A DNA stretch of 64,000 bases from Acidobacteriota bacterium. GTDB taxonomy: Bacteria > Acidobacteriota > Thermoanaerobaculia > Multivoradales > UBA5704. Below, one piece after another: positions 5,903 through 52,634 of this stretch. A program made the position numbers and the translations under genes. The first letter of the stretch is position 1; each line of letters opens with the position of its first letter. Location: positions 68,216 to 132,215 of the forward strand of contig JBEQUE010000010.1 in NCBI GenBank assembly GCA_040349255.1, written 5' to 3'. The notes under the pieces were generated by a model. The model did not search any database. It had not been told where the DNA came from and was given only the letters and a program-made list of their open reading frames with translations.

Positions 5903-5990
5903 CTGGCACCATGGTTGCAGCTTTCCTGAGGGACGGTGGGGATGTTCCCTGCTGAGCAGCTTCCTGAAACGACACCAGACAGGAGGGGCC

Positions 5991-21035: not shown

Positions 21036-21300
21036 TATATGTGGCCGGGACCAATCCCCGGGAATTGACACACAGCATATCAGCATTGCCAACAATGGCG
21101 GCAGACTCAGGACGAAGCTCTCCTCCGTGGCGTCGTCTGAGCCATAGAACGTTCTCCGAGAGCCTGCCTGCCGGATTCCCGGCGAAACCCAGGTCCGCCG
21201 AGGCCAATCGACGGCTGAAAGCTCGCCTATCTGCCGCGCAAGCAGGCTCGGCGGACAGTCCGTCCAGCTTATCGAAGGCGGTTGTCGACTTCTCCGCGGG

Positions 21301-21821
21301 CCGGTAAGGTTACCGGGGACGCGACAATCTTGTCTGGCGCCGTACAAAGTCTGGCAGGCGGCAGACAGGCTTGTCTGTCGCAAACAAGGTTGACGGGAGA
21401 GAGGCTCGACTTATTTCGCCGCGCGACAAGCTTATCCATGGCGCGATAAGCTTATCCACCGCTCGCTAACGTTATCGGGGACCCGACAAGCTTGTCGGAG
21501 GCAAGACAAGCTTGTCAGCCTCCAAGACAGGGTTGTCGGCGGCAAGAAAACGTTAGCAGGAGCCAGCACAACGTTATCCGCGGCAAGTCAAGGTTGCTGG
21601 CCGGCAAACAAGGTTGTCTCGCCGTAGATAAGCTTTAGGGACCGGAAAGCAACGTTGGCTCGCCGCCGACAACCTTGTCGGCGACCAAACAACCTTGTCG
21701 GCTTCCAGGACAAGGTTGTCGGCGCCCGGATAACGTTATGAGCAGCCCGGATAATGTTATCCGCGGCAAATCAAGGTTGTCTCGCCGCAGATAAGCTTGT
21801 CAGCCTTCCCACAAGCCTTCG
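21301..21821. repeat. Tandem array of 26 units with 19-21 bp centre-to-centre spacing, each with a 12-bp quasi-palindrome GAYAAS-STTRTC
   Basis: Hand-mapped cores include GACAATCTTGTC 21323-21334, GATAAGCTTATC 21445-21456, GACAAGCTTGTC 21485-21496 and 21505-21516, GACAACCTTGTC 21668-21679, GACAAGGTTGTC 21709-21720 and GATAAGCTTGTC 21790-21801. Lies between the convergent 3' ends of the HEPN gene and Uma2 copy 2. Confidence 0.9.
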
Positions 21822-21839
21822 CCGTAACCCGCCAGGCAC

Positions 21840-22631
21840 CTATCGCGGGCCGCGGAGGCGATCGAGCTCCGCCCGGAGCCGGGCGACCTCATCCTCGGCA
21901 ACCCGCGCTTTCTCTTCGGCCGCGCTGCGCAGGTCCGCCTCTTCGTCATGGGTCAGGAGAAGCCGGCCGGATGGGTGCTCGAACGTCCGTACGTGATCGC
22001 CGTCGGGAGTGACCTGGAACCAGAGGCCGGTCGTCTCGGAGAGGAAGCGCTCCTGCTCGTCCAGCTCGACCCTTTGATACCCGGAGGAGCCCAGTCGATA
22101 GCCGAGGAGGCGGTAGTGGCGATCGTGGCGCTGGCAGTCGACGATCAGGTACTCCTGGATTCCGACGCGCCGATAGAGCGCGACTTTGTCCTCCATGTCG
22201 GTCTTGCGGATACGGGAGGACAGGGGCGAGACGACTTCGACGACCAGGCAGGGGCGGACGCCCTCGGCGGCGATGTCGAAGCTCTTCCGGTCGGCCTTCT
22301 TGTCGCGCACGCCGCGGATCACCGACACATCGGGAGAAGGCTGCGACAGGCCCGGACCGAAGCGGTGCTGGACATCATAGGTGACCACAACGTCAGGGAT
22401 GGGGCCAAAGAAACGAACCAGAGCGCCGTAGATCTCGTACACGGTCTCGCCGTGGCGCTTTCCCTGGGTCATGTGGTCGCCGAACCGGGGGTTCAGGAAC
22501 AGCTCGGGCGTCAGCGGCATCTCGACCAGCTCCATCCGGCCACCGGGACGTTCGACCCAGCGCTCCAGGGTCATCCCCGGCTCCTCGTCGAGGAGATCGG
22601 ATTCGATCGGCTTGCGGACAGGTTCAGCCAT
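21840..22631 (-). CDS. Uma2-family (DUF820) restriction-endonuclease-like protein with coiled-coil tail, copy 2
   Basis: Same architecture and mostly identical sequence to 19023..19814 (MAEPVRKPIESDLLDEEPGMTLERWVERPGGRMEL...). Same promoter and leaderless context. Confidence 0.75.
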   Translation of the reverse strand: MAEPVRKPIESDLLDEEPGMTLERWVERPGGRMELVEMPLTPELFLNPRFGDHMTQGKRHGETVYEIYGALVRFFGPIPDVVVTYDVQHRFGPGLSQPSPDVSVIRGVRDKKADRKSFDIAAEGVRPCLVVEVVSPLSSRIRKTDMEDKVALYRRVGIQEYLIVDCQRHDRHYRLLGYRLGSSGYQRVELDEQERFLSETTGLWFQVTPDGDHVRTFEHPSGRLLLTHDEEADLRSAAEEKARVAEDEVARLRAELDRLRGPR

Positions 22632-31172: not shown

Positions 31173-33743
31173 GTGCCTGAGATACCTCGGCAGGTCGGGC
31201 CCTACAACATCCTCGGACTGCTCGGCGAGGGCGGCATGGGCGAGGTGTTCCTGGCCTACGACGAGCGCCTGGACCGGAAGGTCGCCGTCAAGCGGGTCCG
31301 CGGCGGCGACCTCTCCGCGAACCGGCGCCAGCGGCTCCAGCGCGAGGCGCAGATGGCTGCCCAGCTCAGCCATCCCGCCATCGTCCAGGTCCACGACTTC
31401 GTCGCCGAGGGCGGGACCGACCACATCGTCATGGAGTATGTGGACGGGCCGAGCCTGAGGAGACTCCTCAGGTCCGGCCCGATGTCTCCGGGCCGAGCCC
31501 TGCCCCTGGCCTGCGAGATCGCCGCCGGGCTCGCCGAAGCGCACCGGATGGGCGTGATCCATCGCGACCTGAAAGCCGAGAACGTCCTCATCACACCCAT
31601 GGGCCATGCCAAGATCGCGGACTTCGGCCTCGCCCGAAGGCTCGACGGCGACGATCGGCTGACCGCCAGCAACGCCGTCCTCGGCACCTACCGGACCATG
31701 TCTCCGGAGCAGGCCCGGGGCGAGCCCGCGAGCTATCGCTCCGACCTCTTCTCCTTCGGCGTCCTGCTCTACGAGATGCTGAGCGGCCGGTCGCCGTTCC
31801 AGGCGGAAAACGGGCTCGCCACCCTGCAGCGCATCACCTCCTTCGATCCGCCGCCGCTCTCGGAGGCCGCTTCCGACCTCCCGACGGAGCTTTCGGCGCT
31901 CGTCGAGCGCCTGATGCGGAAGGAGCCGGACCGCCGGCCGGCCAGCGCCCTGGACGTCCTGAAGGACCTCGAGGAGATGGCCCGGGGAGTGCCCCGGGAG
32001 GAGCCGAGCTGGTTCGCGGCCACCACCCTCCTCTCCCAGCCTGCCGGGATGGAGCGGCCCTCGGGCACACCGTCTGCGCGTCGCTTCCGGGCTCCCGGCA
32101 TCGCGTGGAGCGCCTCCCTGGCGATCACCCTCGCGGCGATCGGGCTCTATCTCGCGCTGCGGCTGCCCGCCGCGCCGCTCTACGTGGCGGTGATCCGGCC
32201 CGAGATCGTGGCTCCGGAGATCGACGCCAGCCAGATTGAAATCCTGGCATCGGGGGTCCGGACCGCCGCCCTGCGCGGCCTGGTGTCGCTCAAGGGCATC
32301 TCGCCCATGGGGAGCAAGGAGGTCGACGACATCGAGGGCTCTCCGACCGCGGTCGCGCGAGCGGTCTCGGCCGACGAGATCCTCGCCAGCCGGCTCGACT
32401 GCCGGCGCGAGCTCTGCCAGGCCACCTTGAGCCGGCTGCGGGGAACCGACGGCAGCGTCGTCCAGGTGGAGAGCTTCGAGGTCCCGGTCGACGACGTGGC
32501 CGTGATGTCCAACATCCTCGCCGGCCAGATCCGGCGGATCTTCTCCGACTACGAGGTCCGCGAAGGCAGCCCCGATATCGAGGCGAGCGGCGCCGATGTC
32601 CGAGAGTTCCTGGAGCTCCGGCGCCGGTTCGACGCCCGGAGCGAGCCTTCCACCGACCAGATCCTCGCGCAACTCGCCGAGATCCGGAAGCGCTCGCCTC
32701 GCTTCCTCGACGCTTACCTGCTGGAAGCGGAGGTCTCCTACTTCCGGTACCACTTGGCGCTCGATCCCAAGGACCGGGATCACGCGGTTGTCCTCATTCG
32801 GCAGGCCCGCAGGATCGACTCGGGAAATCCACAACCGCTGTTCATCCTGATCGATCTCGCCTTGATCGACAACGATGTCAAGAAAGCCGAAACGGCCCTG
32901 GCCGAGCTCGAAACGATCGTCCCGGGAGATGCCCGGATCCTGGACCGGAAGGCCCGGATCCTCACCGCCCGGGGCCGGACCGCGGAAGCCGTCGAGTTGC
33001 TCGAGCGCTCGGTCCGCCTACGGCCGGACTGGAAGCGGCTCTACAATCTTGCCTTCCTCGAATACCGGCACGGCAGCGTCCCCGAGGCGCGGCAGAATCT
33101 CGCCCGGCTCCTCGACATCGCGCCGGGAAACATTTACGGGCTCTCTCTGCTGGGCGAGATCGAGCTGACGAACGGCGACCTGAACGAAGCGGTCCGGCGC
33201 TATGGCGAGTTGGTCCGCCGCTCCAGCTCGCCAAACCGGCTTTCCAACCTCGGGCTCGCCCATCTGCTCCTGCACGACTACCGGCGCGCGGCCGGGATCT
33301 TCCAGGAGGTTGTGGAGAGCGCCCCCACGAACTCCGTCTTCGTCCTGAATCTTGCGGACGCCTGCCTCCTCCTTGGCAGGAGGGAGGAGGCTCGACGTCA
33401 CTACCAGCGCGTGATCGAGCTGAACGGGCCCAGGCCCGGCGACGAACCGGAGCTCGCGAGCGCCACGGCTCAGGCCCTGGCCCACCTCGGACGCGGCCAG
33501 GAGGCCGTGACCGTCATTCGCGAAGTCGAGCGGCTGGCGCCGGACGACGTCGGCGTAGCCTATGCCGGGGCGGTCGTCTATGCGACCCTCGGCGAAGAGA
33601 GCTCAGCCCTGGTCAGCATCGAGAAGGCTCGGAAACTGGGTTACCAGCCGCGCTGGTTCACCTTTTCCTGGTTCAACGGGCTGGAGCACAGGCCCGAGTT
33701 CCAGGCAATGCTTCGACAGGATTCTCCGATGCGTCGTGACTAG
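31173..33743 (+). CDS. Membrane Ser/Thr protein kinase with extracytoplasmic Cys-pair domain and C-terminal TPR repeats (paralog 1)
   Basis: GEGGMGEVFLAYDERLDRKVAVKRV, HRDLKAENVLI, DFGLAR and GTYRTMSPEQARGEP. One TM helix (WSASLAITLAAIGLYLAL). TPR-like C-terminal half. GTG 31173 with AGGAG 7 nt upstream, within ORF 30978..33743. Confidence 0.85.
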   Translation: MPEIPRQVGPYNILGLLGEGGMGEVFLAYDERLDRKVAVKRVRGGDLSANRRQRLQREAQMAAQLSHPAIVQVHDFVAEGGTDHIVMEYVDGPSLRRLLRSGPMSPGRALPLACEIAAGLAEAHRMGVIHRDLKAENVLITPMGHAKIADFGLARRLDGDDRLTASNAVLGTYRTMSPEQARGEPASYRSDLFSFGVLLYEMLSGRSPFQAENGLATLQRITSFDPPPLSEAASDLPTELSALVERLMRKEPDRRPASALDVLKDLEEMARGVPREEPSWFAATTLLSQPAGMERPSGTPSARRFRAPGIAWSASLAITLAAIGLYLALRLPAAPLYVAVIRPEIVAPEIDASQIEILASGVRTAALRGLVSLKGISPMGSKEVDDIEGSPTAVARAVSADEILASRLDCRRELCQATLSRLRGTDGSVVQVESFEVPVDDVAVMSNILAGQIRRIFSDYEVREGSPDIEASGADVREFLELRRRFDARSEPSTDQILAQLAEIRKRSPRFLDAYLLEAEVSYFRYHLALDPKDRDHAVVLIRQARRIDSGNPQPLFILIDLALIDNDVKKAETALAELETIVPGDARILDRKARILTARGRTAEAVELLERSVRLRPDWKRLYNLAFLEYRHGSVPEARQNLARLLDIAPGNIYGLSLLGEIELTNGDLNEAVRRYGELVRRSSSPNRLSNLGLAHLLLHDYRRAAGIFQEVVESAPTNSVFVLNLADACLLLGRREEARRHYQRVIELNGPRPGDEPELASATAQALAHLGRGQEAVTVIREVERLAPDDVGVAYAGAVVYATLGEESSALVSIEKARKLGYQPRWFTFSWFNGLEHRPEFQAMLRQDSPMRRD

Positions 33744-34138
33744 GAGGACTCCAGCACCAGGGACGGCGGCGGCTCGCTCCGAACGACCGGGTAAAAATAA
33801 GTGCCGTCCTGCGTTGCCCTCAGGGCGCTCAGCTCGAAAAAGAACGTGCGGATTTCGCTGGAAGGATCGTTCTGCAGACCGAGCTCGACCCAGGTCTCTC
33901 CCGTCTGCACGCCCGTGATGACACTCGGCTGCGGCACGCTGTTTTGCCCGCTCGAATCCACCCATTGAATGCTTGCATCTCCCGTGAATTCGCTAGGCAG
34001 GTTGATCTTCACCAGATGAGGACCCGGTTCAAAGATCAGGGAAGTGCCCGAAGCAGTGACGCCCGTGACTGCGGGGTCCACCGTGAACTCAATCCGGTCG
34101 CCATTGTTCACCATCTGCGAATGGGCCTGAGCTGACAT
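33740..34138 (-). CDS. Small unassigned protein (132 aa) sharing a C-terminal module with 42119..43129 and 43165..44226
   Basis: Strong GGAGG RBS before ATG 34138. No signal peptide. Predicted beta-rich. C-terminus FFFELSALRATQDGTYFYPVVRSEPPP aligns with F(T/E)LATDAGTWDPTIINNG(D/E)xNP of the two larger proteins. Its stop shares the tetranucleotide CTAG with the kinase stop. Confidence 0.65.
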   Translation of the reverse strand: MSAQAHSQMVNNGDRIEFTVDPAVTGVTASGTSLIFEPGPHLVKINLPSEFTGDASIQWVDSSGQNSVPQPSVITGVQTGETWVELGLQNDPSSEIRTFFFELSALRATQDGTYFYPVVRSEPPPSLVLESS

Positions 34139-38665: not shown

Positions 38666-39373
38666 ATGATCGTCGCGGACGACCCGGACGGCGGGGACCG
38701 GCTCCTCCTGATCACCCAGCCCGACCACGCACACTTCTCGGCGGAGCTGATCTCGCTGTTCCGCACCGGCGGCCTGCCCGGGCATCCGCTCCGGACCGAG
38801 CTGCTGTTCGCGGTCCGCGAGCACGACAACGGCTGGCGCGAGACCGACGCCGCGCCGCGCTGGAATCCCGAGACCGGCAGGCCGCACGACTTCCTGACCC
38901 TGCCGCGCGAGGACCGGATCGAGCTCTGGCAGCGCGGGACGGCCCGATACTCAGCCGAGCACCCGTACGCCGCGCTCCTCATCACCCGCCACGCGATCCA
39001 GCTCCACCAGGGCCGGCGCGGCCAGGACGGCTGGCAGCCGTTCCTGGACTACCTGGACGAGCTGCACCGCGGCCTGGCCGAGGAGGCCGGGACGCCTGAC
39101 GAGGAAGAGGACTACCGCTGGCTCGACCTCGCGGACCTCCTCTCGCTCGGCATCTGCAACCGCTGGCGCGAGCCGTTCGGGCGGTACGGCTTCCAGGCTC
39201 AAATCCTCGACGGCACGCTCCACCTCGACCCGTTCCCGCTCGCCGGGTCCACCGCGTTCCGCATCCCGTGCCGCCGCATCCCCCGCCTGGCGTATCGCGG
39301 CGACGCGGACCTCGGCGGCGAGCTCGCCGGCGCGCGCTGGGAGGAGCTGCCGGTGAGGGTGGCGCCCCTCTAG
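38666..39373 (+). CDS. Hypothetical protein, DUF3891-like
   Basis: [20 protein letters not shown]...REHDNGW resembles the DUF3891 opening (recollection, weak). Coding-like composition. Confidence 0.55.
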
Positions 39374-39834
39374 CCAGGCACCTTCAGCTTGTCCTGGTCG
39401 ATCGTCATGACGATCTGCTCGAACACCCGCCGGTAGAGCAGCAGCAGGTCGGCAAAGATCCGGGTGAACGCCTGGTCGGTCGGCTCGGTGAGCAGGGAGT
39501 TGCCGAGGAAGAGCGGCGGGATGAGCAGCGGCTCCTCCGGCAGCCCGAGGCCGAGGAACTCCCCGGGTCTCAGCCCCTCCTTCGCCGGGTCCCGGGAGAG
39601 GTCGGCGGCGCGCCGGTCGACCAGGTAGAGCGTGTAGAAGAACTCGAACTGCCCGACCTCCAGGACCCCCAGGACCTTCTCCAGGGAGTCGAGCTTGGGC
39701 AGCTCCTTGCCGTTCTCATACTTCGAGAGCTGGCTCTTGCCGATCCCCGCCTCGCGCGCCACCTGAGCCTGGCTCTTCCCCCTCAGCTCGCGCAGGAGAC
39801 CGAGGGTCCTCCCCAGATTCACAAACATTCCCAT
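39370..39834 (-). CDS. XRE-family HTH transcriptional regulator with C-terminal extension
   Basis: LGLLRELRGKSQAQVAREAGIGKSQLSKYENGKELPKLDSLEKVLGVL is a Cro/C1-type HTH. Start at ATG 39834 or 39828. Confidence 0.7.
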   Translation of the reverse strand: MGMFVNLGRTLGLLRELRGKSQAQVAREAGIGKSQLSKYENGKELPKLDSLEKVLGVLEVGQFEFFYTLYLVDRRAADLSRDPAKEGLRPGEFLGLGLPEEPLLIPPLFLGNSLLTEPTDQAFTRIFADLLLLYRRVFEQIVMTIDQDKLKVPG

Positions 39835-40095
39835 GCGGGAAATGTATCGGGCTGGCGGACGGTCGCGCAAGCCTAAGTTCTTCTTTCCATGATACTTACG
39901 GCGCAAGCTCCGGAGACGAAAGGTCCACTTCTGGCGGTTGGTGAATACGGGGATACGGGGGCTGGCTCTCGGGACACCGGACTACCATACCGGATTCGGC
40001 TATCCCGAGAAAAGTTGCAACGCCCAGGGAAAACCGGTTCCGCCGGTCCGGTGCCTTCCGGCCCGAAGAGTTCCCGGAAGAGAATACCCGGCCCC

Positions 40096-40587
40096 TCAGC
40101 TCTTCTTTCTTCTGCGCTTCGCGGGAGCCTTCGGCGGAAGCTCCTGCGAAGCCGGCTCGTCGGGCTGGGCCTCCGGAGCGCTTTTCGGCACCACGCGGAA
40201 GAGGATCACCCACTCGCCCATCTCGAACGCTCCCTGGGCGACCGGCCGCGGCTGGAGGAGGTTCCCGTGCACGAACGACTCCACCTTCTCGAAGACCGCC
40301 TGGATCTCCTCCGGCCATCGCCCGGCCGTGTCCTGCGATCCGGCGCGCCGGTTGGCCAGCATCTCCGCCTCGACCTGCTCGTAGCGCCGGAAGAACTCGC
40401 GCCGGGTCAGTCCCTGCGAGGTCAGGATCTTGTCGAGCGTGCCGAGGGTTGCGGCCTGATGGCTGTTCTCGATGCGGGAGAGCTGGCCGCGGCCGAGACC
40501 GGCCTCGCGCCCGAGCTTCTCCAGCGTCTTGCCTTTCTCCTTCCGGATGCGGCGGAGAGTCTCGCCCACGTACTCGAAGTGATCCAC
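40096..40587 (-). CDS. XRE-family HTH transcriptional regulator with basic C-terminal tail
   Basis: LRRIRKEKGKTLEKLGREAGLGRGQLSRIENSHQAATLGTLDKIL is an HTH. GTG start. Lys/Arg-rich tail (KRRRKKS). Confidence 0.7.
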   Translation of the reverse strand: MDHFEYVGETLRRIRKEKGKTLEKLGREAGLGRGQLSRIENSHQAATLGTLDKILTSQGLTRREFFRRYEQVEAEMLANRRAGSQDTAGRWPEEIQAVFEKVESFVHGNLLQPRPVAQGAFEMGEWVILFRVVPKSAPEAQPDEPASQELPPKAPAKRRRKKS

Positions 40588-41458: not shown

Positions 41459-42082
41459 ATGGCCGAGGAGACCGAAGGGAAGAGGAGCTTCGAGACGTGG
41501 TGCGGCCTGGTGATCGCGGTGTTCGCGGCGGTGCTCGCGATCACCGACCTGGGCGCCGGGAAGTACGGCGACGACGAGCTGATCGCCCACAACGAGAAGG
41601 GCGGGGCCTATCTCTGGTATCAGTCGAAGGGGATCAAGGAGACCCTGGTCGAAGGCCAGCGCGACACCCTGAAGGCGCTGATCGAGGCCGGCTCGATCAA
41701 GCCCGAGCAGCTCCCGGCCATCGAGAAGATGGTTGCGTCGCTGGATGCGGACGCCGCGCGCTACGGCAAGGAGAAGAAGGAGATCCTGCTGGGCTCGAAG
41801 GCGGTGGGGCAGGAGAACTGGGCCCAGGACGTGGGCGGCGAGATGGGCAAGGTGATCGGGGCCCAGGAGTGGCAGGCGAAGGCCAGCGCCCTGGGCGACG
41901 CCGGCGACGTCTTCGACTACTCGACGTTCTTCCTCCAGGTCTGCCTGGTGATGGGCGCGATGAGCCTGATCCTCCAGGACGCGAAGCTCGGCCGGTCGTT
42001 CTTCACGGCCATGGTCGTCCTGGGGCTCGTCGGCACCGGTTTCGCGGTCCTGGCGTTCCTGCAGGCGGGCGGGGTGGGGTGA
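41459..42082 (+). CDS. DUF4337-like membrane protein
   Basis: One N-terminal and two C-terminal TM helices flank a helical soluble region. The overall layout recalls DUF4337 (recollection). Confidence 0.55.
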   Translation: MAEETEGKRSFETWCGLVIAVFAAVLAITDLGAGKYGDDELIAHNEKGGAYLWYQSKGIKETLVEGQRDTLKALIEAGSIKPEQLPAIEKMVASLDADAARYGKEKKEILLGSKAVGQENWAQDVGGEMGKVIGAQEWQAKASALGDAGDVFDYSTFFLQVCLVMGAMSLILQDAKLGRSFFTAMVVLGLVGTGFAVLAFLQAGGVG

Positions 42083-42118: not shown

Positions 42119-43129
42119 ATGACGCCCAGCTTCCAAACAAACTTGTTCGGCACGACCACGCCGGGCACCTGGTTGACATGCCTGGCCTTCACCATTCCAC
42201 CCTCCATGACAAACACCAGCAGTGCAATCAGCATCAGCCTTCCTGGTGGAGTGCCCCTTCAATCGATCGACATCCCCGGTGGAATGAATTGGGATTCGAA
42301 TATGACGACGTTGACGATCCCATCGACTTTCACTGCTCCCAACTCGACGGTGTCGCTCACCCTGTCCAACGGCGCCACGGCGACCTTCTCGGTCTTCCTG
42401 GCGGGCTCCCCCCAGGATGGAATAATGTCCAGCCTCGAGGTGAACAGCAGCGGCTGGATGATGGTGACATCGACCGGTCAAGGCGTCTCCTTCAAAGGGT
42501 TCACGCCCTTGATCCAATCGATTCCTGAAAACGGATACGTAAACCTTCAGGATCCGGTGTTCCTCATTCCGAACGTAACCGGAGCCGACTTCAGCTTCAT
42601 GGTCGCGGGCGACGTCACGGTCAGCGATCCGGATGCTGTAGCGATCTTGATCGAAGACTCCGTAAATTTTGTCACCATCCTGGAAACGCTGGGGCGGGGA
42701 GCAATCGTGACGATCACCAGCTCGATCGAGACGATAATCGGCACCTTCACCGTTCAAAGGCTCAGCGACACCACCATCCCCTCCGGAGGTCAAAGCGTCC
42801 TCGTGCTCCAACCGAATGGCAGCTTCGTCGTAGCCAGCCTCGCCGCGGACGCATCCCTGCGCGGAAACAACGTTCAGTTCAACACCATTGGCGCAGCCGA
42901 TTTCATATTCACCATTGCCACCGACAATTTGAGCTACGCCAGCCCGCCCGTCTCGTTCGAGAATACCATCAGCCCATCATCCACGACCTTTGGATCCAAC
43001 TCTTCCGCGCCCGGTTCCGTCGAGATCACGGATTCGGGGACCGCGGGAGCTCAAACCGGTTTCACACTCGCGACAGACGCCGGGACCTGGGATCCGACGA
43101 TCATCAACAACGGAGATATGAACCCCTGA
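42119..43129 (+). CDS. Unassigned Ser/Thr-rich protein, tandem paralog A (336 aa)
   Basis: AAGGAGAC RBS then ATGACG. No signal peptide. Visibly lower G+C than flanks. Paralogous along its full length to 43165..44226. C-terminus LATDAGTWDPTIINNGDMNP. Confidence 0.7.
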   Translation: MTPSFQTNLFGTTTPGTWLTCLAFTIPPSMTNTSSAISISLPGGVPLQSIDIPGGMNWDSNMTTLTIPSTFTAPNSTVSLTLSNGATATFSVFLAGSPQDGIMSSLEVNSSGWMMVTSTGQGVSFKGFTPLIQSIPENGYVNLQDPVFLIPNVTGADFSFMVAGDVTVSDPDAVAILIEDSVNFVTILETLGRGAIVTITSSIETIIGTFTVQRLSDTTIPSGGQSVLVLQPNGSFVVASLAADASLRGNNVQFNTIGAADFIFTIATDNLSYASPPVSFENTISPSSTTFGSNSSAPGSVEITDSGTAGAQTGFTLATDAGTWDPTIINNGDMNP

Positions 43130-43164: not shown

Positions 43165-44226
43165 ATGACGGCGACTTTTGAAACAGGCTTATTCGGAACG
43201 ACAGAGACCGGGGCCTTTGTCAAATGCCTGGCCTTCACTCTTCCACAGGCCGCGTCCAACACCAGCCATACTATCAGTATCAGCTCGCCCATCGGCGTGA
43301 GTGTCAGCATCGACAGTCTACCCAATGGGATGAGTTGGAATTCGAGTACACAGACGCTGACCATTTTGCCGACGTTCACCGACTCCGGCTCGAGACTGGA
43401 GCTGGACCTGTCCAACGACGCCGATGCGTTCTTCACCGTGTTCTTGTCGAGCTCCACTCAGAACGGCGTGGCGTCCAGCCTTGAGGTGAATGCCATCGGC
43501 TTGATGAAGGTGACTTCGGTCGGTACAGGAGTTACCTTCAAAGGATTCAATCCTTCGATCACATCCATCCCTGAAAACGCCGGAGTACTTCTCAAGGACA
43601 CGCTGTTTCTGATCCCCGAGGTGACCGGGACGACGGATTTCAGCTTCCTCGTCGATAACCTTACCAGCGAGGGATCGATAACCATTACCTCCACCAGCTC
43701 TGGGATCTCGGTGAGCAATTCCTCGCGCACCGTGACGGCTCAGAGCAGCCTCGCACCGGGAGACACTGCTACGATAACGGTCACGTATACCCAGCAGTCC
43801 GACTTAATAACCGGCACCTTCACCATCCAGAGGATCAACACCTCTTCGCCACCATCCGACGGTGGTCAAAGCAGTCTCGACGTCGGCCCCACCGATGGTT
43901 TCTTCGCTGTGAGGGCCATCGCATCGAACGCCCAATTGCGCGGAAACGATATTCAATATTTCACACCTCCCCCTGCCGAGTGCAACTTCCTGTTCCATAT
44001 CGCCACCGAAAATCTGAACTATGCCAGCCAGCCTGTCATACTCGTGGACACCATCAGCACATCATCCACGACCTTCACGCCCCATGTCCCGGCGACCGGT
44101 ACGGTCGAGATCATGGATTCGGGAACCTCCCTCGCACAAACCCGTTTCGAGCTCGCGACGGACGCAGGGACCTGGGATCCGACGATCATCAACAATGGAG
44201 AGCCGAATCCTATCCGGCTTTTCTAA
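43165..44226 (+). CDS. Unassigned Ser/Thr-rich protein, tandem paralog B (353 aa)
   Basis: Same RBS and ATGACG context as paralog A. Shared blocks LFGTT..G....CLAFT.P, SSLEVN, FKGF.P.I.SIPEN, FLIP.VTG.DFSF, GTFT.QR and LATDAGTWDPTIINNGEPNP. Its 3' end overlaps the convergent kinase gene by 17 nt. Confidence 0.7.
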   Translation: MTATFETGLFGTTETGAFVKCLAFTLPQAASNTSHTISISSPIGVSVSIDSLPNGMSWNSSTQTLTILPTFTDSGSRLELDLSNDADAFFTVFLSSSTQNGVASSLEVNAIGLMKVTSVGTGVTFKGFNPSITSIPENAGVLLKDTLFLIPEVTGTTDFSFLVDNLTSEGSITITSTSSGISVSNSSRTVTAQSSLAPGDTATITVTYTQQSDLITGTFTIQRINTSSPPSDGGQSSLDVGPTDGFFAVRAIASNAQLRGNDIQYFTPPPAECNFLFHIATENLNYASQPVILVDTISTSSTTFTPHVPATGTVEIMDSGTSLAQTRFELATDAGTWDPTIINNGEPNPIRLF

Positions 44227-46753
44227 CCAGCAGGCGCTGGAACTCGGGGAGCGGACGCAGACGGTCGAACCAGGGGAAGGAGAACCAGCGTGGCTGGTAC
44301 CCGAGCTTCAAGGCCCTCTCGGCGCTGACCAGGGCTGAGGAGGTCTCTCCCAGGACCGCATAGACCAGCGAGGCCTCATAGGCGATCCCGGCATTGTCCG
44401 GGGCCAGCCTCGAGGCCTCCTGGACCGCGGCGACCGCCCGCGGCCCCTCGCCGAGATGGGCGAGGGCCTGTGCCTTCCAGGACAGGAGCTCCGGGTCACC
44501 GCCCGTGGGATCGCCCTCGACCAGCTCCACCACCCGGCGGTACTCCGGTTTCGCCCGTTCCGGCTTGCCGAGGAGCGCGTACGCATCGGCCAGGTTGAGC
44601 GCGAAGCCGGGATGGCGCGGCTCCTTCTCGACCACGCGCTCCAGGGTCTCCGCGGCCTCCGCGTAGCGCTCGAGCAGGAAGTAGGCGACGGAAAGATTCG
44701 AAAGCTCCGTCAATCCCGGAGAACGGCGCAGCGTCTCCTGGTAGAGCGCCACGGCCCTGGCGGGAGACCCGTTCTCGAGCTCGAGCTGCGCCAACAGCGA
44801 AAGCCCCTCGACGTTGCCCGGAGATCTGGACAGCAGCGTCTCGAGATGGCCGCGGGCGTCGGCGATCCGGCCATTCAGAATCTCCATGCGTGCCAGGATG
44901 GACAGCCGCTTCCAGGACGGATGGCGCCGGACGGCCGTGATCAGAAGATCGATGGCCTCTTCGAGCCGGCCCCGGGCCCGGAGAAGGCGCGCCTCTCGGT
45001 CCACGACCCGGACGTCTCCGGGCACCCGTTCCCGCAGCTCTTCGAGGGCCTCTTCGGCCCGGTCCAGCTCGCGCGCTTCGAGCGCGACGTCGAACAGGTT
45101 GAACAGGGGCTGGGGATCGTCGGGCACGAGCCGGCGCGCCTCCTCCACCCTGGAAAACGCGCGGGCGAGGTCGTCCGGGCTCCGCGTCTGCCGGAAGCGA
45201 AGGCGCGCGATGTCCGCTTCGAGCAGGATCGCATCGAGAAAGGTCGGCCGCCGCGCGCGGATCTCCGCCAGCTCGTCCAGCAGGGGGCCGGTATCGGAAT
45301 CTTTCCGCGCATCGAATCTCTGCCGGATCTGGGTGAACCTCTTCAAGTCGTCGCTGTCGACGTCCAGCTCCGGATGGCCCTCGCGAACGCGGTGCTGCTC
45401 ATAGCCCCGCTGGATCTGCCCGGCCACGGCACTCGCCACCAGGAAAAAATTGTCGGTCGGCACCTCGAAGCTCTCGACCCAGAGGACCGATCCATCCGCT
45501 CCGCGAATACGATGGAGGATGATGCGACAGGACTCCGACCGGCATTCCAGGCGCGAGGCCACCACTTCGTCCGCATCCACGGCACGGGCGACCTGCTCAG
45601 GATCGCCGGAGACGGCATCGACCTCGTCCGCAGTCCTGGGCGTGATCCCTTCCAGCCCGAGCAGGCCGCGCAGGATCGCTGCGTAGACGACGGGAGGCAG
45701 AAGCTCGAGATCGCCCCGCGACGGGCCGAGCTGAGCCTCAGGCTCCAGCACGGCCACGGACACCGGCTCCGCCGGCCTTCTCAGCAGGTAGACGCCACCC
45801 GCGAGCGCCAGGACAAGGAGGAGCAGGGCGCCGGCCAGAGCCAGCCGGGACGGTGGTCGCCGCGGCAGCCTTCGGGCGGTCGTCTCGGCTCCATCCTGGA
45901 TGGTGGCGGTTTCCGAGGGTGCTTCGTCCTCCATTTCCTCCAGGGTCCATACGATCTCCTCGGCGCTCCGCGGCCGGAGGAAGGGGTCCTTTTCGAGGAG
46001 GCGGTCGACCAGCCTGGAGAGCGGATCGGGCACGGCCGGGTTCAGCTCGCGGACCGGCGGCTGGCGGTGGTTGGCGATCCGGTCGAGCATGGCCAGGCCG
46101 TTGTCCGCCTTGAACGGCGAGCGCCCGGCGAGCAGCTCGTAGAGCAGGACTCCGAGCGAGAAGAGGTCAGAACGGTGATCGACCGGCTCTCCCCGCGCCT
46201 GCTCGGGCGACATGGCGCGATAGGTGCCCAGGACCGCTCCGGTCCCGGTCAGGCCGTCGTCGGAGGTGCCCTCGTCGGTCATCCGTTTGGCGATCCCGAA
46301 GTCGGAGATCTTCGCCTGGCCGGCGTCGGTGACCAGGACGTTCTCCGTCTTCAGGTCCCGGTGGACGATCCCCTGGCGGTGCGCCTCCTGCAGGCCCTTG
46401 GCGATCTGGATTGCGAGGTCGATCACCCGGGGAACCGGCAGGGGACCGCCGCGGAGCAGAGCCCGGAGCGTCGTTCCTTCCACATATTCGAGCACCAGGT
46501 GGTCCACATCCTGGCCGGAGAGGAGGTCGTAGACGTGGACGATGTTGGGGTGGTTCAGGCGGGCCGCGAGCCGGGCCTCCCTGCGGAAGCGTTCCTTCTG
46601 CTGCGGCCGGGAGGCGTCCTGCCGGATGCGCTTGATCGCAACCTTGCGGTCGAGCTGCTCGTCGTGGGCCAGAAAGACCTCGCCCATCCCTCCGGAACCC
46701 AGCCGGGACAGAAGCCGGTAGTGGCCGATGCGTGTTTCCGCGTCGGTGGACAT
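44210..46753 (-). CDS. Membrane Ser/Thr protein kinase with extracytoplasmic Cys-pair domain and C-terminal TPR repeats (paralog 2)
   Basis: MSTDAETRIGHYRLLSRLGSGGMGEVFLAHDEQLDRKVAIKRI, HRDLKTENVLV, DFGIAK and GTYRAMSPEQARGEP. TM helix LALAGALLLLVLALAGGVYLL. Collinear with 31173..33743 to the very C-terminus (KLGYQPRWF.F.WF). ATG 46753 lies within the over-long ORF 44210..47662. Confidence 0.85.
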   Translation of the reverse strand: MSTDAETRIGHYRLLSRLGSGGMGEVFLAHDEQLDRKVAIKRIRQDASRPQQKERFRREARLAARLNHPNIVHVYDLLSGQDVDHLVLEYVEGTTLRALLRGGPLPVPRVIDLAIQIAKGLQEAHRQGIVHRDLKTENVLVTDAGQAKISDFGIAKRMTDEGTSDDGLTGTGAVLGTYRAMSPEQARGEPVDHRSDLFSLGVLLYELLAGRSPFKADNGLAMLDRIANHRQPPVRELNPAVPDPLSRLVDRLLEKDPFLRPRSAEEIVWTLEEMEDEAPSETATIQDGAETTARRLPRRPPSRLALAGALLLLVLALAGGVYLLRRPAEPVSVAVLEPEAQLGPSRGDLELLPPVVYAAILRGLLGLEGITPRTADEVDAVSGDPEQVARAVDADEVVASRLECRSESCRIILHRIRGADGSVLWVESFEVPTDNFFLVASAVAGQIQRGYEQHRVREGHPELDVDSDDLKRFTQIRQRFDARKDSDTGPLLDELAEIRARRPTFLDAILLEADIARLRFRQTRSPDDLARAFSRVEEARRLVPDDPQPLFNLFDVALEARELDRAEEALEELRERVPGDVRVVDREARLLRARGRLEEAIDLLITAVRRHPSWKRLSILARMEILNGRIADARGHLETLLSRSPGNVEGLSLLAQLELENGSPARAVALYQETLRRSPGLTELSNLSVAYFLLERYAEAAETLERVVEKEPRHPGFALNLADAYALLGKPERAKPEYRRVVELVEGDPTGGDPELLSWKAQALAHLGEGPRAVAAVQEASRLAPDNAGIAYEASLVYAVLGETSSALVSAERALKLGYQPRWFSFPWFDRLRPLPEFQRLLVRKAG

Positions 46754-46809: not shown

Positions 46810-47466
46810 TCAGCGCCGCTTCGAAATGGCCTCGTACTCGCGCTCGAACCCGGGCAGGATGGCCTTGACGAAGGCGTTGGAGACCAGGCGGACGAGGATC
46901 TGCCAGGTGCTGGTGTTCGGGTCGTCGAGCGTGCCCGAGATGTCGGCCACGGTGGCGACCTGCTCCCGCGGCCGGTTCTTCAACAGGTGGGAGAGCCCGC
47001 CGACCACCTTCTCGTAGAGCTTCTTGAGTACCGGCTTCCGCTTGTCCTGCTGCGGACTGTAGACCTTGACGTCCTTGAACAGCGGCTTGACATAGCCGTC
47101 GATCCGGCCGTCGTGGACCTTCATCTCGGTGTAGACCGAGAAGGTGCCCGAGGCGACGTCGAACTTGCCGTAGGCGCGCAGCAGCTCGTTGATCGACGGC
47201 AGGCTCGCGCCTTCGACCCGGACCAGCAGGTCGAAGTCCGGACCCTTGCTGTCGTCGCGGAAGGTGGCGTTGCCGCGCACCGAGCCGCTTCCCATGAAAC
47301 GCCCGGCGAGGCTCGCCTTGACCGGCCCCCGGCGGAATCCGCTGGAGAGGTTGGTCAGCGTGAAGTCGGCGTTGTCCACGAAGACGCGGAAGCGCCGGCC
47401 CTTCGCCAGGCTGACCAGGCCAAGCCGGCCGTCCTCGATCGCGAAGCGGTCGATCCGCACCGGCAC
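46810..47466 (-). CDS. DUF748/AsmA-C-like domain protein, possibly N-terminally truncated
   Basis: IDRFAIEDGRLGLVSLAKGRRFRVFVDNADFTLTNLSS...GTFSVYTEMKVHDGRIDGYVKPLFKDVKVY resembles DUF748 repeats. GTG start. No TM or signal segment, and no coding-like frame in the 200 bp upstream. Confidence 0.5.
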   Translation of the reverse strand: MPVRIDRFAIEDGRLGLVSLAKGRRFRVFVDNADFTLTNLSSGFRRGPVKASLAGRFMGSGSVRGNATFRDDSKGPDFDLLVRVEGASLPSINELLRAYGKFDVASGTFSVYTEMKVHDGRIDGYVKPLFKDVKVYSPQQDKRKPVLKKLYEKVVGGLSHLLKNRPREQVATVADISGTLDDPNTSTWQILVRLVSNAFVKAILPGFEREYEAISKRR

Positions 47467-47867
47467 CGCCGGCTGGGTTCGGCCCCTTCGAGCGGGTTTC
47501 CCTGGGGGCAGTCTGCCGCGTCCCCGCCTCGTCTTCGGGCCACGGATGCCGCTGTCTGTGCAGAACCGCCATACAACCTCGAAGCGCCTGCCGACTCCCG
47601 GAGGCCGCTCTCCTGGACAGATAGCAAGGCGGCGGTCCTGGTCCAGCGGGCCTGAAAATCACGCATGACCATGCGCTAGCCAGACCGCATCGGAGAGGTT
47701 AATCTCTCTTCAACGGTCGGGCGGGGGAGGCTCCTCGGGGGTTCCTGAGGGCGATGAAAGAGGTTCGGAGGGAGAAGCAGGTTGCAGTACAAGGCGCGGC
47801 TGGGCTGGGCCGCTGGAGAGGGGAGCCGAAAGGCTCTCCTCTTTGTGTTTTTGCTAGGCTCCCGGGG

Positions 47868-49273: not shown

Positions 49274-52213
49274 CTACCGCCAGCTCAGCCGGGCGCCGAG
49301 ACGAAGCATGCGCGGGCTCACGACCTCGAGGACGTGGTCCGAATTGCTCTGTCCGAGCACCGACTGGCGCTGCAGCACGTAGGACTCGTTGAGGGCGTTG
49401 AAGAGATCGGCCCCGATCGTCACGCCCATCCCGCTGAAGTGCATCTCCTTCTCCAGCCGCAGGTCGAGAAGGTGGACGTCCGGGCTCCGGAAGGCGTCCG
49501 CGTCGCTGACGATCGGCACGTCGAGACCGACGCTCGGCGTGTCCGCGATCGGCGTCCGGCTGACCCTGCGGGCGTAGCGGACCGGATAGCCCTGGCGGCC
49601 GTTCAGGGCGGCGCCGACGTTGAAGCTCCAGGGCTTGTCGGGCGCGATCTGGTAGAGGCCGCTCAGGCTGTACGACCAGCCGCTGTTGATATACACGTTG
49701 TCCTTGGCGCCCGAGGCCGTGCCGGAGCCCTGCAGCACGTCCGTGCCGTCCACGATGCCGCCGGCGATGGTATCGGTCGGATCCTGGTTCTCCGAGTCCG
49801 GAATGTCCCAGGTCCAGTCCTGCCAGGAGGCGCTGCCGGTGGCCATCCAGCGGTTCGAAAGGCGCTTCTGGAAGGTCAGCGAGGCGCCTCGGAACACCTG
49901 CTCGCGGTCGCCGTTGCGCAGCAGGAAACCGTTGCGGGTGCCGACGCCGTCGCGCAGGACCCAGTAGTTGACGGTGTAGGGCTGGCCGTTCGGCAGCACG
50001 CCGGTCAGCGGCGCCGCCGGCACGTAGTCGTCGCGCCGGTGCACGCGGCCGACGCTGCCCAGGTTCTGGGGTGCGAAAGGATCGCCGTCGAAGACCAGCA
50101 GCTCGGCTTCCAGCAGACCGCTGAGGCGCCGGTAGGTGGCGTTGAGGCCCACCACCAGGTCGGGCCGCAGGGCGCGCTCCACGCCGAGGATCAGCTCGTC
50201 GGTGAGCGGCGCGTCGAGGTTCGGGTCCACGGCGTTCGACTGCAGCGCTCCGAGCGTGAACGGATTCAAGTTGCCGCTCGGCTGTCCGGCTTCCGGTCCG
50301 AGCTCGCCGGGCTCCAGCACGGGGCCGCCGTTGTTGGTGGTGTAGAAGTAGCGGTACTGGGGCGCGCCCAGCGGATGGAGCCAGCCGGCGAACGCGGTGG
50401 CGAGCTGGTCCGCGAACCTCGAGTAGCTGGCGCGCAGCAGGGTCTGGCCCCGCTCGTCGAGCGACCAGGTCAGGCCGACGCGCGGCGAGAGCGTGTTCCA
50501 TTCGAAACCGCTGTCGCGCCCTTCGAACGCCGCGGCCGGCAGCAGCTCGGGGAACACCGGGTTGGCCTCGACGCGGGTGTCGAGCAGCTCGCCGCCCTGG
50601 CGGTCGTAGCGCAGCCCGACGCTCGCCGTGAGCCGGCCGGCCGAGACCGTGTCCTGCACGAAAAGGTTTCCATAGTCGGCGCGGACGTTGGCCACGCCTT
50701 CGCGGGCGAGGATCAGCACCCCGCCGCAGCACTCCAGGCCGCCGCCCGGCCAGCGGTTCACGGTGGTCTGGTCCACCGTGCGGTAGCCCGCGCCATACTT
50801 GAGCTCGTGGGAGAGGCCGCGCGTGCCGAAGAAGCTGGAGGCGTCGAGCCGGGCCTGCTTCTGCGGGCGCTTCGACTGGATGTGCAGGAAACTGTTGTGC
50901 CAGACGCCGTCCCCGTCCACGAACGGGAGCTTGTCGCCGCCTTCCGGCGCGAGCTCGAGGCCGCCGTTGACGACCGCGGCCATGCCGGTGAGGTAGAAGC
51001 TGGAGCCGAAGATCTGCGTGTCCTCGACCTTCCAGGCGGTCGGGCTCGGGCCGAAGCCGCTCTGGTCCCAGGTCGTCTCCTGCGGGCGCAGCGGGCTCGC
51101 GTTGCGGCCGAGCTTGACCTTCTCGTCCTGCCAGACGAAGCCGGTCGCCGAGTTCGACGGCGTGATCTGGCCGTTGAGCTTGACGTTCCAGTCCTTGATC
51201 GACGTGTCGTCGCGGAAGTCGTTGACGGTCAGGAGATCGACCTGCTGCTCGCCGTACGAGCCCCAGACCCAGAGCTTCTTCGGGATCAGGGGTCCGCCGA
51301 TCTCGGCGCCGTAGTCCGAGACCTCGACGATGCGGTTGCCCTGCTCGAGATCGGCCTGGGCGGTGCCGCGGTTCCAGGGTCCGGCCTGGCCGAGCTCGGA
51401 ACGGTCGAGATCGAGATCCGACTGCGTGCTGTCGTCGCCGGCCACATAGCGGGCCGAACCGCGCCACTGATCCGTTCCGCGGCGGGTGACCATGTTCACC
51501 ACCACGCCGCCGGTCGCCACCGAGGCGTCGCTGCCGCCGGTCGTGATCTGCATCTCCTGGAACGAATCGAAGTCGAAATAGCCCGGCGAGGAGCCGATCG
51601 CCGACATGTCGGTGATCACCATGCCGTCGAGCGACCACATGGCCTGGGCGCCGGGCGAGCCCGGCCCCACGAGGGCGGACTGCTGGCCGCTCTCGTTGCC
51701 GCCGTTGTTGATGCGGTCGAGCAGGACGCCGGGCGCGGTGCGCAGGATGGCCCAGGGGTCGCGGGCCGTCGGCACCTTGTCCATCTCCACCCGCGGCACG
51801 TTGCGCTCGATGCTGATGCGGTGAGGATCGAGGAGCGGCGCCTGGTCGCCCTTGACGTTGACGACCTCCGTGAAATCGGAGGACGCGAGCGACATTTCGA
51901 TCTCGGTGTTGCGGCCGAGACTGACCACGACGTCCTTCCACTCGACGGGCGCGAAGCGATCGAGCTCGGCCTTGACCGTGTACTTGGCCGGCGACAGGCC
52001 GAGAAAATGGAAGTCGCCCTTGGCGTCCGTGGTCTGGACCTGCTCGGTACCCTCGCCCGTGAGGGTCACGGTGACGCCGGGAAGCTCCTGGCCGTTGTCG
52101 TCGACCACGGTGCCATAAAGGTTTCCGGCCTGGAGCTGGGCCATCGCCGGAAGCGCCAGCAGCCCCGTGAAGGCTGCCAGGAGCGCAAGCTTTCTCAAAA
52201 GTTTTCCGTTCAT
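49274..52213 (-). CDS. TonB-dependent-receptor-like outer-membrane protein with N-terminal carboxypeptidase-regulatory domain
   Basis: Signal MNGKLLRKLALLAAFTGLLALPAMAQ. GTVVDDNGQELPGVTVTLTG...TDAKGDFHFLGLSPAKYTV (CarboxypepD_reg). Plug-like and long beta-barrel region. Architecture common in Acidobacteriota. Confidence 0.8.
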   Translation of the reverse strand: MNGKLLRKLALLAAFTGLLALPAMAQLQAGNLYGTVVDDNGQELPGVTVTLTGEGTEQVQTTDAKGDFHFLGLSPAKYTVKAELDRFAPVEWKDVVVSLGRNTEIEMSLASSDFTEVVNVKGDQAPLLDPHRISIERNVPRVEMDKVPTARDPWAILRTAPGVLLDRINNGGNESGQQSALVGPGSPGAQAMWSLDGMVITDMSAIGSSPGYFDFDSFQEMQITTGGSDASVATGGVVVNMVTRRGTDQWRGSARYVAGDDSTQSDLDLDRSELGQAGPWNRGTAQADLEQGNRIVEVSDYGAEIGGPLIPKKLWVWGSYGEQQVDLLTVNDFRDDTSIKDWNVKLNGQITPSNSATGFVWQDEKVKLGRNASPLRPQETTWDQSGFGPSPTAWKVEDTQIFGSSFYLTGMAAVVNGGLELAPEGGDKLPFVDGDGVWHNSFLHIQSKRPQKQARLDASSFFGTRGLSHELKYGAGYRTVDQTTVNRWPGGGLECCGGVLILAREGVANVRADYGNLFVQDTVSAGRLTASVGLRYDRQGGELLDTRVEANPVFPELLPAAAFEGRDSGFEWNTLSPRVGLTWSLDERGQTLLRASYSRFADQLATAFAGWLHPLGAPQYRYFYTTNNGGPVLEPGELGPEAGQPSGNLNPFTLGALQSNAVDPNLDAPLTDELILGVERALRPDLVVGLNATYRRLSGLLEAELLVFDGDPFAPQNLGSVGRVHRRDDYVPAAPLTGVLPNGQPYTVNYWVLRDGVGTRNGFLLRNGDREQVFRGASLTFQKRLSNRWMATGSASWQDWTWDIPDSENQDPTDTIAGGIVDGTDVLQGSGTASGAKDNVYINSGWSYSLSGLYQIAPDKPWSFNVGAALNGRQGYPVRYARRVSRTPIADTPSVGLDVPIVSDADAFRSPDVHLLDLRLEKEMHFSGMGVTIGADLFNALNESYVLQRQSVLGQSNSDHVLEVVSPRMLRLGARLSWR

Positions 52214-52634
52214 CGCAGATCAACCTCCTTCAAACCCGAATCGTTTCTGGTTTCGTTCGAGGACGGTTCTTCGCTGTCGAGGCCGCCGGCATCACCTCCC
52301 GCGTGAAAAACGTTGCGAAAGCCGCCGATAGCAAGGGTTGTGCCGCGGCGCGAAACGCCCGTTCTACAACGGTTTTCCCGCCGGCGTCCGCTTTGGATGA
52401 CTATCCCGGCATTCAGGAAACTGAATATCGGACGGGGGAAAGATCCGGGAAATCCAGGCGGAACGGATGTTTCGGCCGCATCCGGAAACTTGGAAACCCG
52501 TTCGGAAAGCTGCGCGAAGCGGCGCCGGGGAGCCGATCGGCCTCCGGAGAGGTCGGCGGCGTCCTCGTGCCGGGCTTCCGCCTTTCGACCACGGACCATT
52601 GCGCTGGTGGCGTCTTCCCGGATAAACTTCCCGC

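Follow-up and report, generated by a model that had tools for sequence, protein, structure and literature searches.

The 64,000-nucleotide (nt) stretch of Acidobacteriota DNA considered here (contig JBEQUE010000010.1; hereafter the window) carries two paralogous genes for receptor Ser/Thr kinases, kinA and kinB, each running tail to tail into a smaller gene on the opposite strand (Table 1). At locus B, kinB converges with pB2, which follows its tandem paralog pB1; at locus A, the position opposite kinA is taken by pA. We refer to the proteins encoded in this position as partners. In a comparison with related genomes, we found that the kinase-partner pair is a conserved, undescribed module of a group of soil-dwelling Acidobacteriota (Thermoanaerobaculia and Holophagales) and that locus B is a copy of it.

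Table 1. Genes and features of loci A and B, with positions in the window (aa, amino acids; TM, transmembrane)
Feature	Position	Strand	Description
kinB	44210-46753	-	Receptor Ser/Thr kinase, 847 aa
kinB kinase domain	~45956-46720	-	Pkinase, E 1e-53
kinB TM helix	~45782-45838	-	Strongest hydrophobic 19-mer, at residue 306
kinB juxtamembrane Cys-pair block	~45458-45553	-	
kinB TPR region	~44294-45091	-	Many TPR Pfam families
pB2	43165-44226	+	Long-form partner, 353 aa, convergent with kinB
Asp-Pro of pB2	44176-44181	+	C-terminal motif WDPTIINNGE
pB2/kinB tail-to-tail overlap	44210-44226	.	17 nt
pB1	42119-43129	+	Tandem long-form partner paralog, 336 aa
Asp-Pro of pB1	43091-43096	+	
kinA	31173-33743	+	Paralogous receptor kinase, 856 aa
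pA	33740-34138	-	132 aa; partner position of kinA; ribosome-binding site gaggaggg before ATG
DUF4337 gene	41459-42082	+	Pfam DUF4337, E 5e-33; 36 nt upstream of pB1
Open reading frame in activator slot beside kinB	46810-47658	-	Between RluA and the kinase; sub-threshold DUF748 match only; not an activator

The two partners of locus B are 52% identical to each other. Both genes have a ribosome-binding site of the AGGAG type before the ATG (acaaggaga for pB2 and gaaaggaga for pB1), and a position-specific scoring matrix (PSSM) of the C-terminal motif of the family scored 28.7 bits for pB1 and 26.4 bits for pB2, whereas no other window site exceeded 4.3 bits. The pB2 protein ends in an additional four-residue tail, IRLF, which is not present in other long-form members; because of this tail pB2 and kinB overlap by 17 nt on opposite strands, an overlap reported earlier and confirmed in the sequence. 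Just two close relatives of the pB proteins were present in public data (P0002 and P0004). In both, the partner gene has DUF4337 on one side and, on the other, a convergent kinB ortholog that it overlaps by 4 nt. The pB proteins are 50-55% identical to the partners of loci L001 and L002, while the flanking genes there are 87-92% identical to those of the window. A scan for terminator-like hairpins found none at the pB2/kinB and pA/kinA junctions, with a simple consensus that may miss acidobacterial terminators.

The window genes in the partner position also differ from the kinase genes in composition, with third-codon-position GC of 0.70-0.74 for pA, pB1 and pB2 and of 0.85-0.88 for kinA and kinB. 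A dip in GC content to 0.574 at 42-44 kb is caused by the partner genes. Lysine and arginine together are scarce in the encoded proteins (1% in pB1, 3% in pB2 and 4% in pA), and all three are acidic.

The full-length alignment of kinA and kinB (421 of 847 residues identical, 50%; E = 0) bore out the collinearity noted in the first-pass annotation: the Gly-loop, the single TM helix, the RL(D/E)CR.E.C...VESFEVP block and the KLGYQPRWF end all aligned. Both kinases scored above the Pkinase PF00069 cutoff of 31.7 bits (182.8 bits for kinB and 174.3 bits for kinA) and have HRDLK and DFG. Several TPR matches were seen in both, with TPR_2, TPR_16 and TPR_19 above Pfam cutoffs and PknG_TPR as a weak match. 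The only strong hydrophobic segment lies at residues ~306-324 of kinB and ~310 of kinA; from this topology, the kinase domain would be cytoplasmic, and the TPR array and the Cys-pair domain would be outside the membrane. The N-terminal catalytic domain with HRD and DFG, the single TM segment and the C-terminal repeat sensor resemble those of PknB (PASTA). The differences from PknB and PknG are that the TPR array of kinA and kinB comes after the TM segment, is predicted to be extracellular and is preceded by a Cys-pair juxtamembrane domain; PknG is a soluble TPR-containing kinase. Anti-phage kinase systems of PADLOC (PD-T4-6, Mok, Pgl) matched only over kinase residues ~5-300 and gave no match to the partners. 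Orthologs of kinB are 87-92% identical in L001 and L002 and 71-73% identical in L006. In the kinase tree kinA forms a long branch, and every relative compared is closer to kinB.

The scan with the kinase ectodomain, done with one genome per species, yielded 12 loci, and a scan of metagenome contigs yielded two. The kinase-centred set consisted of 13 loci, i.e., the 12 species-level genome loci, with kinase relatives 35-73% identical, and the metagenome locus L017. The partner-centred set consisted of 14 places encoding nine different partner proteins. A convergent gene with a product ending in (D/N)P(T/V/S)I..(D/E/N)P was next to the kinase in all 13 kinase-centred loci, and a convergent Pkinase-TPR gene (~870-890 aa where the contig was long enough) was beside the partner in all 14 partner-centred places. 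Stop-to-stop distances lay between -28 and +16 nt in all 26 places listed; L014, outside that listing, has an overlap of ~103 nt. A 4-nt shared palindromic stop of the CTAG type recurred in L001, L002, L006, L007 and L025 as well as in the window.

The gene on the other flank of the partner varied: it could be DUF4337, a DEAD helicase, an inserted pair of ATPase and DUF4276 genes, or others. For example, an AAA_15/AAA_21 ATPase gene and a DUF4276 gene, a pair that looks mobile and of defence type, were inserted between DUF4337 and the partner in L025 (3106-4835) and L026 (2-1419), and the partner-kinase junction was intact despite the insertion. Two modules were found in a single metagenome-assembled genome (MAG; L008 and L012), and L030 had a tandem long-form pair like pB1-pB2. 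Thus, the pair was linked and convergent in all loci examined and in differing contexts, and the recurring tail-to-tail module that the first-pass annotation had proposed from the window stands firmly for locus B.

We also observed that partners evolve much faster than kinases. Where the kinases were 90% identical the partners were 65% identical, and where the kinases were at 58% identity or below the partners were at the noise level. The neighbour-joining tree of the kinases separated exactly by partner subtype, with kinase clades matching partner subtypes. An AGGAG-type ribosome-binding site preceded the ATG of the partner gene in all cases. The codons of the C-terminal motif differed synonymously between loci and, therefore, the constraint acts on the protein.

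We assigned a protein to the family when its last ~15 residues contained (D/N)-P-x-(I/V) and, after it, a tail of the (D/E/N)-P type; both pB1 and pB2 show this pattern. Every family partner ends in (D/N)P-x-I-x-x-x-P. A profile search with the short form found 69 more proteins of 126-186 aa, nearly all of which end in HDPTI(V/L/I)W(D/E)PPxG or TYG(S/T)DP(T/V)I(I/V)NxPP. The long form had ~10 representatives in an exhaustive profile search; P0002, P0004 and P0006-P0013 end in DPTI(I/V)NNPD. A sequence like DP(T/V)I(I/V)x(D/E/N/Q)PP closes the partners of the kinase-centred loci. The 65-sequence short-form alignment had no invariant columns other than Asp, Pro and Ile; of 87 sequences, 49 have the Asp 10 residues before the end of the protein. 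The sole exception to Asp-Pro was L014 with Asn-Pro, another pair competent for self-cleavage. In some partners (L014, gene 6530-7372 on the minus strand; P0019; P0026; L015) the PP tail is followed by a basic C-terminal extension of 30-50 residues, translated antisense to the kinase 3' end with an overlap of ~100 nt. In a profile-profile comparison (hhalign), the last ~80 residues of the long form aligned with the C-terminal half of the short form (E 5e-5, probability 67%).

The content of Ser and Thr was 26-29% in the long form and 16% on average in the short form. The earlier description of the partners as Ser/Thr-rich is, therefore, accurate for the long form and does not extend to the short form. 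No signal peptide or TM segment was found in the partners.

With respect to known families, searches in Pfam, NCBIfam and PADLOC assigned the partner to none, one weak DP-EP match aside: one of the 65 short-form members matched Pfam PF08985 (DP-EP) with an E-value of only 1.3e-4, below the gathering threshold, and none of 12 long-form members matched. The AlphaFold2 model built from the 65-sequence short-form alignment was all-beta, with a predicted local distance difference test score (pLDDT) of 90.4 and a predicted template modelling score (pTM) of 0.84, and the residues after Asp-Pro formed the last strand. In the Foldseek search of this model against PDB, the top matches were the SO1698 entries 3njm, 3nji, 3njh, 3njk and 3njl, with E-values from 2.5e-5 to 3.4e-4 and TM-scores of 0.52-0.70 (best match, E 2.5e-5, TM-score 0.60/0.70). 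The PDB titles of the SO1698 entries name D116A, P117A, S114A and D37A mutants. After SO1698 came MakD, MakC and PixA-type proteins (ranks 5, 12 and 14). The partner is, as far as the model goes, probably a beta-sandwich of the SO1698/DP-EP (cupredoxin-like) fold type, and probably cytoplasmic. We infer that it cleaves itself at the Asp-Pro ~10 residues from the C-terminus, because of the SO1698 fold match, the DP-EP match and the invariant Asp-Pro near the C-terminus.

Other likenesses of the partner were set aside. A fold search in BFVD gave only generic matches to phage beta-sandwiches. The segment FPTYPIEWF weakly resembled antibody heavy chains, which we put down to chance. The short-partner segment (G)PxxxxPP...FPTYPIEWFVNN (residues 30-84 of P0015; columns 64-83 of the short-form alignment) resembled the IgG CH2 and antibody VH domains at E 0.08-0.2, which probably reflects chance or a general likeness of beta-sandwiches.

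SO1698 of Shewanella oneidensis is cited as a self-cleaving endopeptidase of the DUF1888 family (PMC11655445), and Pfam places DP-EP and PixA in a common clan (PMC9038741). SO1698 resembles the partner in being a small all-beta sandwich with an Asp-Pro few residues from the C-terminus (D116A/P117A mutants, chains of ~120 residues). It differs in that the partner family as a whole has no significant sequence similarity to it, that the partners are longer (135-160 aa, or ~340 aa with extra N-terminal domains) and that only the partner family has the extended motif DPTI..(D/E)PP. We take DUF1888 to be the family now named PF08985 DP-EP in Pfam. To our knowledge, neither a biological role nor any association with a kinase or sigma-54 has been established for SO1698; in full-text searches on SO1698, DUF1888 and DP-EP we found no paper linking that family to a kinase or to sigma-54. 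MakC and MakD of the Vibrio cholerae mak operon and the PixA-type inclusion proteins share with the partner the neighbourhood of cupredoxin-like sandwiches. MakC and MakD are, like the partner, small non-secreted proteins encoded beside the system served, as accessory proteins in their case (PMC11484084). They differ in having no described Asp-Pro tail and no kinase link, and in being part of a toxin operon.

The gene order around the kinase pointed to a third component. Clustering by gene order showed that in 15 loci (L005-L007, L009-L012, L014, L015, L019-L021, L023, L025 and L027) the kinase gene is directly preceded, on the same strand, by a gene for a sigma-54 activator (Sigma54_activat and HTH_8, ~535 aa). 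A -24/-12 element, TGGCACG-N4-TTGCW, with a match at 10 or more of 12 positions was located at -48 to -78 of the partner ATG in 10 of 16 relatives' loci. An 11th site scoring at least 10 of 12 was located at -224 in L016, and sites with a score of 9 were located at -53 to -58 in L027, L028 and L030. For comparison, the window background contained five sites scoring at least 10 of 12 per 128 kb (both strands).

Upstream of the sigma-54 promoters, at ~100-180 nt before the partner ATG, we observed two to three tandem palindromes (L005-L008, L019, L020, L023, L025, L009-L011 and L013). The palindromes were clade-specific: one kinase clade has CGACAYGTCG and the other CCGTCCGACGG-TA-CCGTCGGACGG. 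They are probably the binding (enhancer) sites of the adjacent sigma-54 activator. This arrangement, shared by most relatives, suggests that the neighbouring activator drives the partner gene through sigma-54; the obvious input to that activator would be the kinase.

The window itself has a different layout. Searches of its 64 kb with three activator proteins (tblastn) found no activator, and the slot beside kinB is occupied by another open reading frame (ORF; Table 1). No good sigma-54 site or palindrome was found near pA, pB1 or pB2, with the best scores being 8 of 12 for pB1 and 7 of 12, at -225, for pA. The pB1 candidate, 88 nt before the gene, was set aside as probably a by-product of the DUF4337 coding sequence in which it lies; L006 has a similar sequence at that coding position plus a real promoter in the spacer. 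The spacer between DUF4337 and the partner is 36 nt in the window, 29-35 nt in L001 and L002, and 141 nt in L006, the closest long-form relative with enough flank, in which the activator is retained; the L006 spacer carries TGGCAT-N5-TTGC and palindromes. The 228-nt region upstream of pA has no recognisable promoter.

On this comparison, the window modules would be derived ones, in which the activator and the sigma-54 promoter were lost and pB was duplicated; this is part of the overall reading that we consider probable. Transcription of pB1 and pB2 probably occurs by read-through from DUF4337, because the spacer has only 36 nt and the sigma-54 promoter is gone. Elsewhere in the window, good sigma-54-type -24/-12 matches are present at 5904-5918 (+) and 52331-52345 (-), with the sequences TGGCACCATGGTTGC and CGGCACAACCCTTGC; the latter is located ~120 nt upstream of a TonB-dependent receptor gene (49274-52213, minus strand). 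Because of these matches, the organism probably uses sigma-54, although both window modules would have lost sigma-54 control.

At locus A, the reported 4-nt overlap of pA and kinA was confirmed as the palindrome CTAG at 33740-33743, in which a TAG stop is read on both strands. The first-pass annotation stated that both window kinases keep a partner of the same family tail to tail; the geometry holds at both loci (17 and 4 nt), while the common family does not follow for locus A. The pA tail, GTYFYPVVRSEPPPS, has Tyr-Pro at the position of the family Asp-Pro. Among 5.8 billion protein clusters, no homolog of pA was detected except pA itself. BLASTP of pA against pB1 and pB2 gave E-values of 0.21 and 0.68, and hhalign against the long-form and short-form profiles gave 0.43 and 0.24. 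With hidden Markov models (HMMs) of the family (up to 70 members) pA ranked 6th to 29th among the 637 window ORFs, at E-values of 29 or higher, and it was outside the top 12 window sites by the C-terminal motif PSSM. MAFFT placed "IQW...QP" and "GTYFYPVVRSEPPP" of pA beneath the conserved blocks of the family without statistical support. Common descent of pA with pB1 and pB2 is, by all these tests, unproven.

On the other hand, pA occupies the partner position with the CTAG geometry of five other lineages, and it has a partner-like size, a ribosome-binding site and a partner-like codon composition (codon-position GC of 0.59/0.47/0.74, like the partner genes of L009, L011 and L012). At the ~50% identity of the two kinases, partner bodies are expected to be at the noise level of identity, and Asp-Pro is the sole usable hallmark there. 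It may be that pA is a degenerate, non-cleaving derivative of the partner family. In the overall reading, kinA and pA would be an old, fast-diverging duplicate whose partner, if it is a partner at all, lost the Asp-Pro hallmark. Directly upstream of kinA lies a gene for a 640-aa protein (29153-31075, plus strand) with a sub-threshold Pkinase match (E 7e-7, 29.3 bits, cutoff 31.7) and a C-terminal TonB_C; the Pkinase part is probably degenerate, making it an unusual pseudokinase-TonB fusion.

Taken together, kinB, pB1 and pB2 are, in our judgement, probably the window copy of a module that leads from a kinase through an activator and sigma-54 to the partner as output. In such a module, the single-pass receptor Ser/Thr kinase would sense an external signal and modulate the sigma-54 enhancer-binding protein encoded directly upstream. 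The activator, acting via a sigma-54 promoter with tandem palindromic enhancer sites, would switch on the partner as the output of the pathway, and the partner would cleave itself at Asp-Pro or, rarely, Asn-Pro. As the convergent genes leave no room for a terminator, transcription of the partner would probably also run on into the kinase gene in the antisense direction. Cascades from a Ser/Thr kinase through an FHA-domain enhancer-binding protein to sigma-54 were reportedly proposed for Myxococcus xanthus by Jelsbak et al. in 2005. The common features are a Hanks-type kinase gene beside a sigma-54 activator gene and a sigma-54 promoter on a neighbouring target. The differences are that the N-terminal domain of the activator has no FHA match here, that the target is one undescribed family in a fixed convergent position and that the window has no activator.

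Several observations weigh against this reading. No good sigma-54 site was found within 350 nt in L009 and L012. The N-terminal 140 aa of the activator matched no known phospho-acceptor or phospho-binding domain, which makes signalling from kinase to activator a conjecture; the domain looks FHA-like by eye only. The partner family as a whole scores under the Pfam DP-EP thresholds, SO1698 was absent from PDB-sequence searches with three profiles and one single sequence, and the AlphaFold2 model of pB2 itself (four sequences) was poor (pLDDT 42.8), so that the fold match concerns the short form only. The suggested equivalence of the partner Asp-Pro to D116-P117 of SO1698 comes from a similar position in a similar fold. 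Finally, in L008/L028, L016 and the window the kinase-partner pair has been kept where no activator gene lies beside it. This makes the pair the more stable unit and could point to a direct relationship at the protein level. Since the pair outlasts the activator in several lineages, the window included, a direct protein-level or an antisense relationship between kinase and partner remains plausible alongside the sigma-54 route.

In one form of such a protein-level relationship, the kinase domain would act on the partner as its cognate cytoplasmic substrate, or be regulated by the partner as a pseudosubstrate, with the partner docking via its conserved C-terminal tail. The linkage is obligate and persists in the activator-less loci just named, the kinase tree is congruent with the partner subtypes, and the partners have neither signal peptide nor TM segment. 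Besides, in the tail HDP-T-I-V-W-D-P an acidic residue precedes the Thr and position +3 is taken by a large hydrophobic one, a pattern resembling the preferences reported for mycobacterial Hanks kinases. Many members, however, have Val, Ala, Gln or Ser in place of the tail Thr, and the invariant feature is Asp-Pro, which is of the cleavage type and not a phospho-acceptor. The sigma-54 promoter and activator also explain the adjacency more simply. The first-pass annotation had derived the substrate role from Ser/Thr richness; this argument is weak, given that the richness is confined to the long form, that the tail Thr is variable and that the relatives show the layout of a regulator and its target. 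We regard the substrate role as doubtful.

Alternatively, the convergent arrangement itself could be functional, with sigma-54 transcription running antisense into the kinase/activator operon and the partner protein being secondary. The operon would then be under negative feedback, exerted through transcriptional interference or double-stranded RNA. All loci keep the two genes tightly tail to tail, five lineages with a 4-nt overlap of the CTAG type, which is consistent with such a role, as are the missing terminator-like hairpins at either window junction and the almost free divergence of the partner protein body. Conversely, the Asp-Pro/Ile/Pro motif with synonymous variation, the retained ribosome-binding sites and the confident fold indicate selection on the protein, and the terminator scan has the limit given above. 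We find it unlikely that antisense transcription is the main function; this reading is compatible with the sigma-54 output module and does not exclude it.

Two further readings start from the cleavage. In one of them, the receptor kinase is coupled to a self-cleaving Asp-Pro protein in which the cleavage or the freed C-terminal peptide is the signal, and the body is under diversifying selection as in conflict or recognition systems; the external TPR array could read the peptide, or phosphorylation could gate the cleavage. We think this quite unlikely. In the other, cleavage at Asp-Pro would free a C-terminal peptide of 9-12 residues for export, and the extracytoplasmic TPR domain of the kinase would sense it in an autocrine loop. 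The adjacency of partner and receptor genes and the position of the predicted cleavage site just before a conserved short tail would fit this loop, and sigma-54-driven induction of the partner would close positive feedback. TPR arrays commonly bind short peptides or C-terminal tails, and could do so here. As in RRNPP quorum-sensing, a pro-peptide gene would be paired with that of a TPR receptor, here unlike RRNPP a membrane kinase. However, the partner lacks a signal peptide, and the neighbourhood has no conserved exporter gene. The tail is also the most conserved part of the partner, whereas signalling peptides usually diversify, and it forms the last beta-strand of the sandwich in the AlphaFold2 model. 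In SO1698, cleavage is reported to occur at Asp116-Pro117, with the C-terminal peptide staying bound to the protein. An autocrine loop is, on this evidence, very unlikely.

It is highly improbable that the genes lie together through inherited synteny alone, without functional coupling, and that pA is an unrelated or spurious ORF lying behind kinA by chance after a local duplication. Shared ancestry does account for part of the recurrence, as orthology is seen among many loci of clade II (RluA, activator, kinase, partner, DUF4337, DEAD helicase), and pA has no homolog and fails every homology test. The pair, however, is kept at kinase identities down to 35-40% and in unrelated neighbourhoods (L008-L016), survives an adjacent insertion (L025) and exists as two separate modules in one MAG (L008, L012), while pA has a strong ribosome-binding site, the CTAG shared stop and a partner-like size and codon composition, with an unrecognisable body being expected at ~50% kinase identity.

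As for the setting, the window has a GC content of ~68% and a gene content of the Gram-negative type, encoding LptD, a TonB-dependent receptor and CsgG. Its nearest genomic relatives are MAGs of Thermoanaerobaculia and Holophagales within Acidobacteriota. The long ORF extensions 5' of kinA and kinB are non-coding as judged by codon-position GC. Another GC dip, to 0.591, was seen at 20001-22000. Two adjacent paralogous regulators of the XRE type with helix-turn-helix (HTH) domains are encoded at 39370-39906 and 40096-40587, both on the minus strand, between DUF3891 and the string of methyltransferase-like, DUF4337 and pB genes.

Three of the elements are known already: receptor Hanks kinases, sigma-54 activators linked to kinases, and the DP-EP fold. 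The combination, the partner family, its fixed convergent position and its extreme evolutionary rate appear to be undescribed. The analysis defines an undescribed protein family of ~80 clusters in public data, obligately paired with a kinase and so far seen only in Acidobacteriota of the Thermoanaerobaculia/Holophagales type. It also gives the self-cleaving SO1698/DP-EP fold its first genomic and regulatory context. The partner changes fast, being ~50% identical where its neighbours are ~90% identical. The intact three-gene versions and the rewired, activator-less versions of the window offer a natural comparison. For a phylum in which signalling is almost unstudied, the module would represent a simple circuit made of a kinase, a sigma-54 activator and a single output gene.

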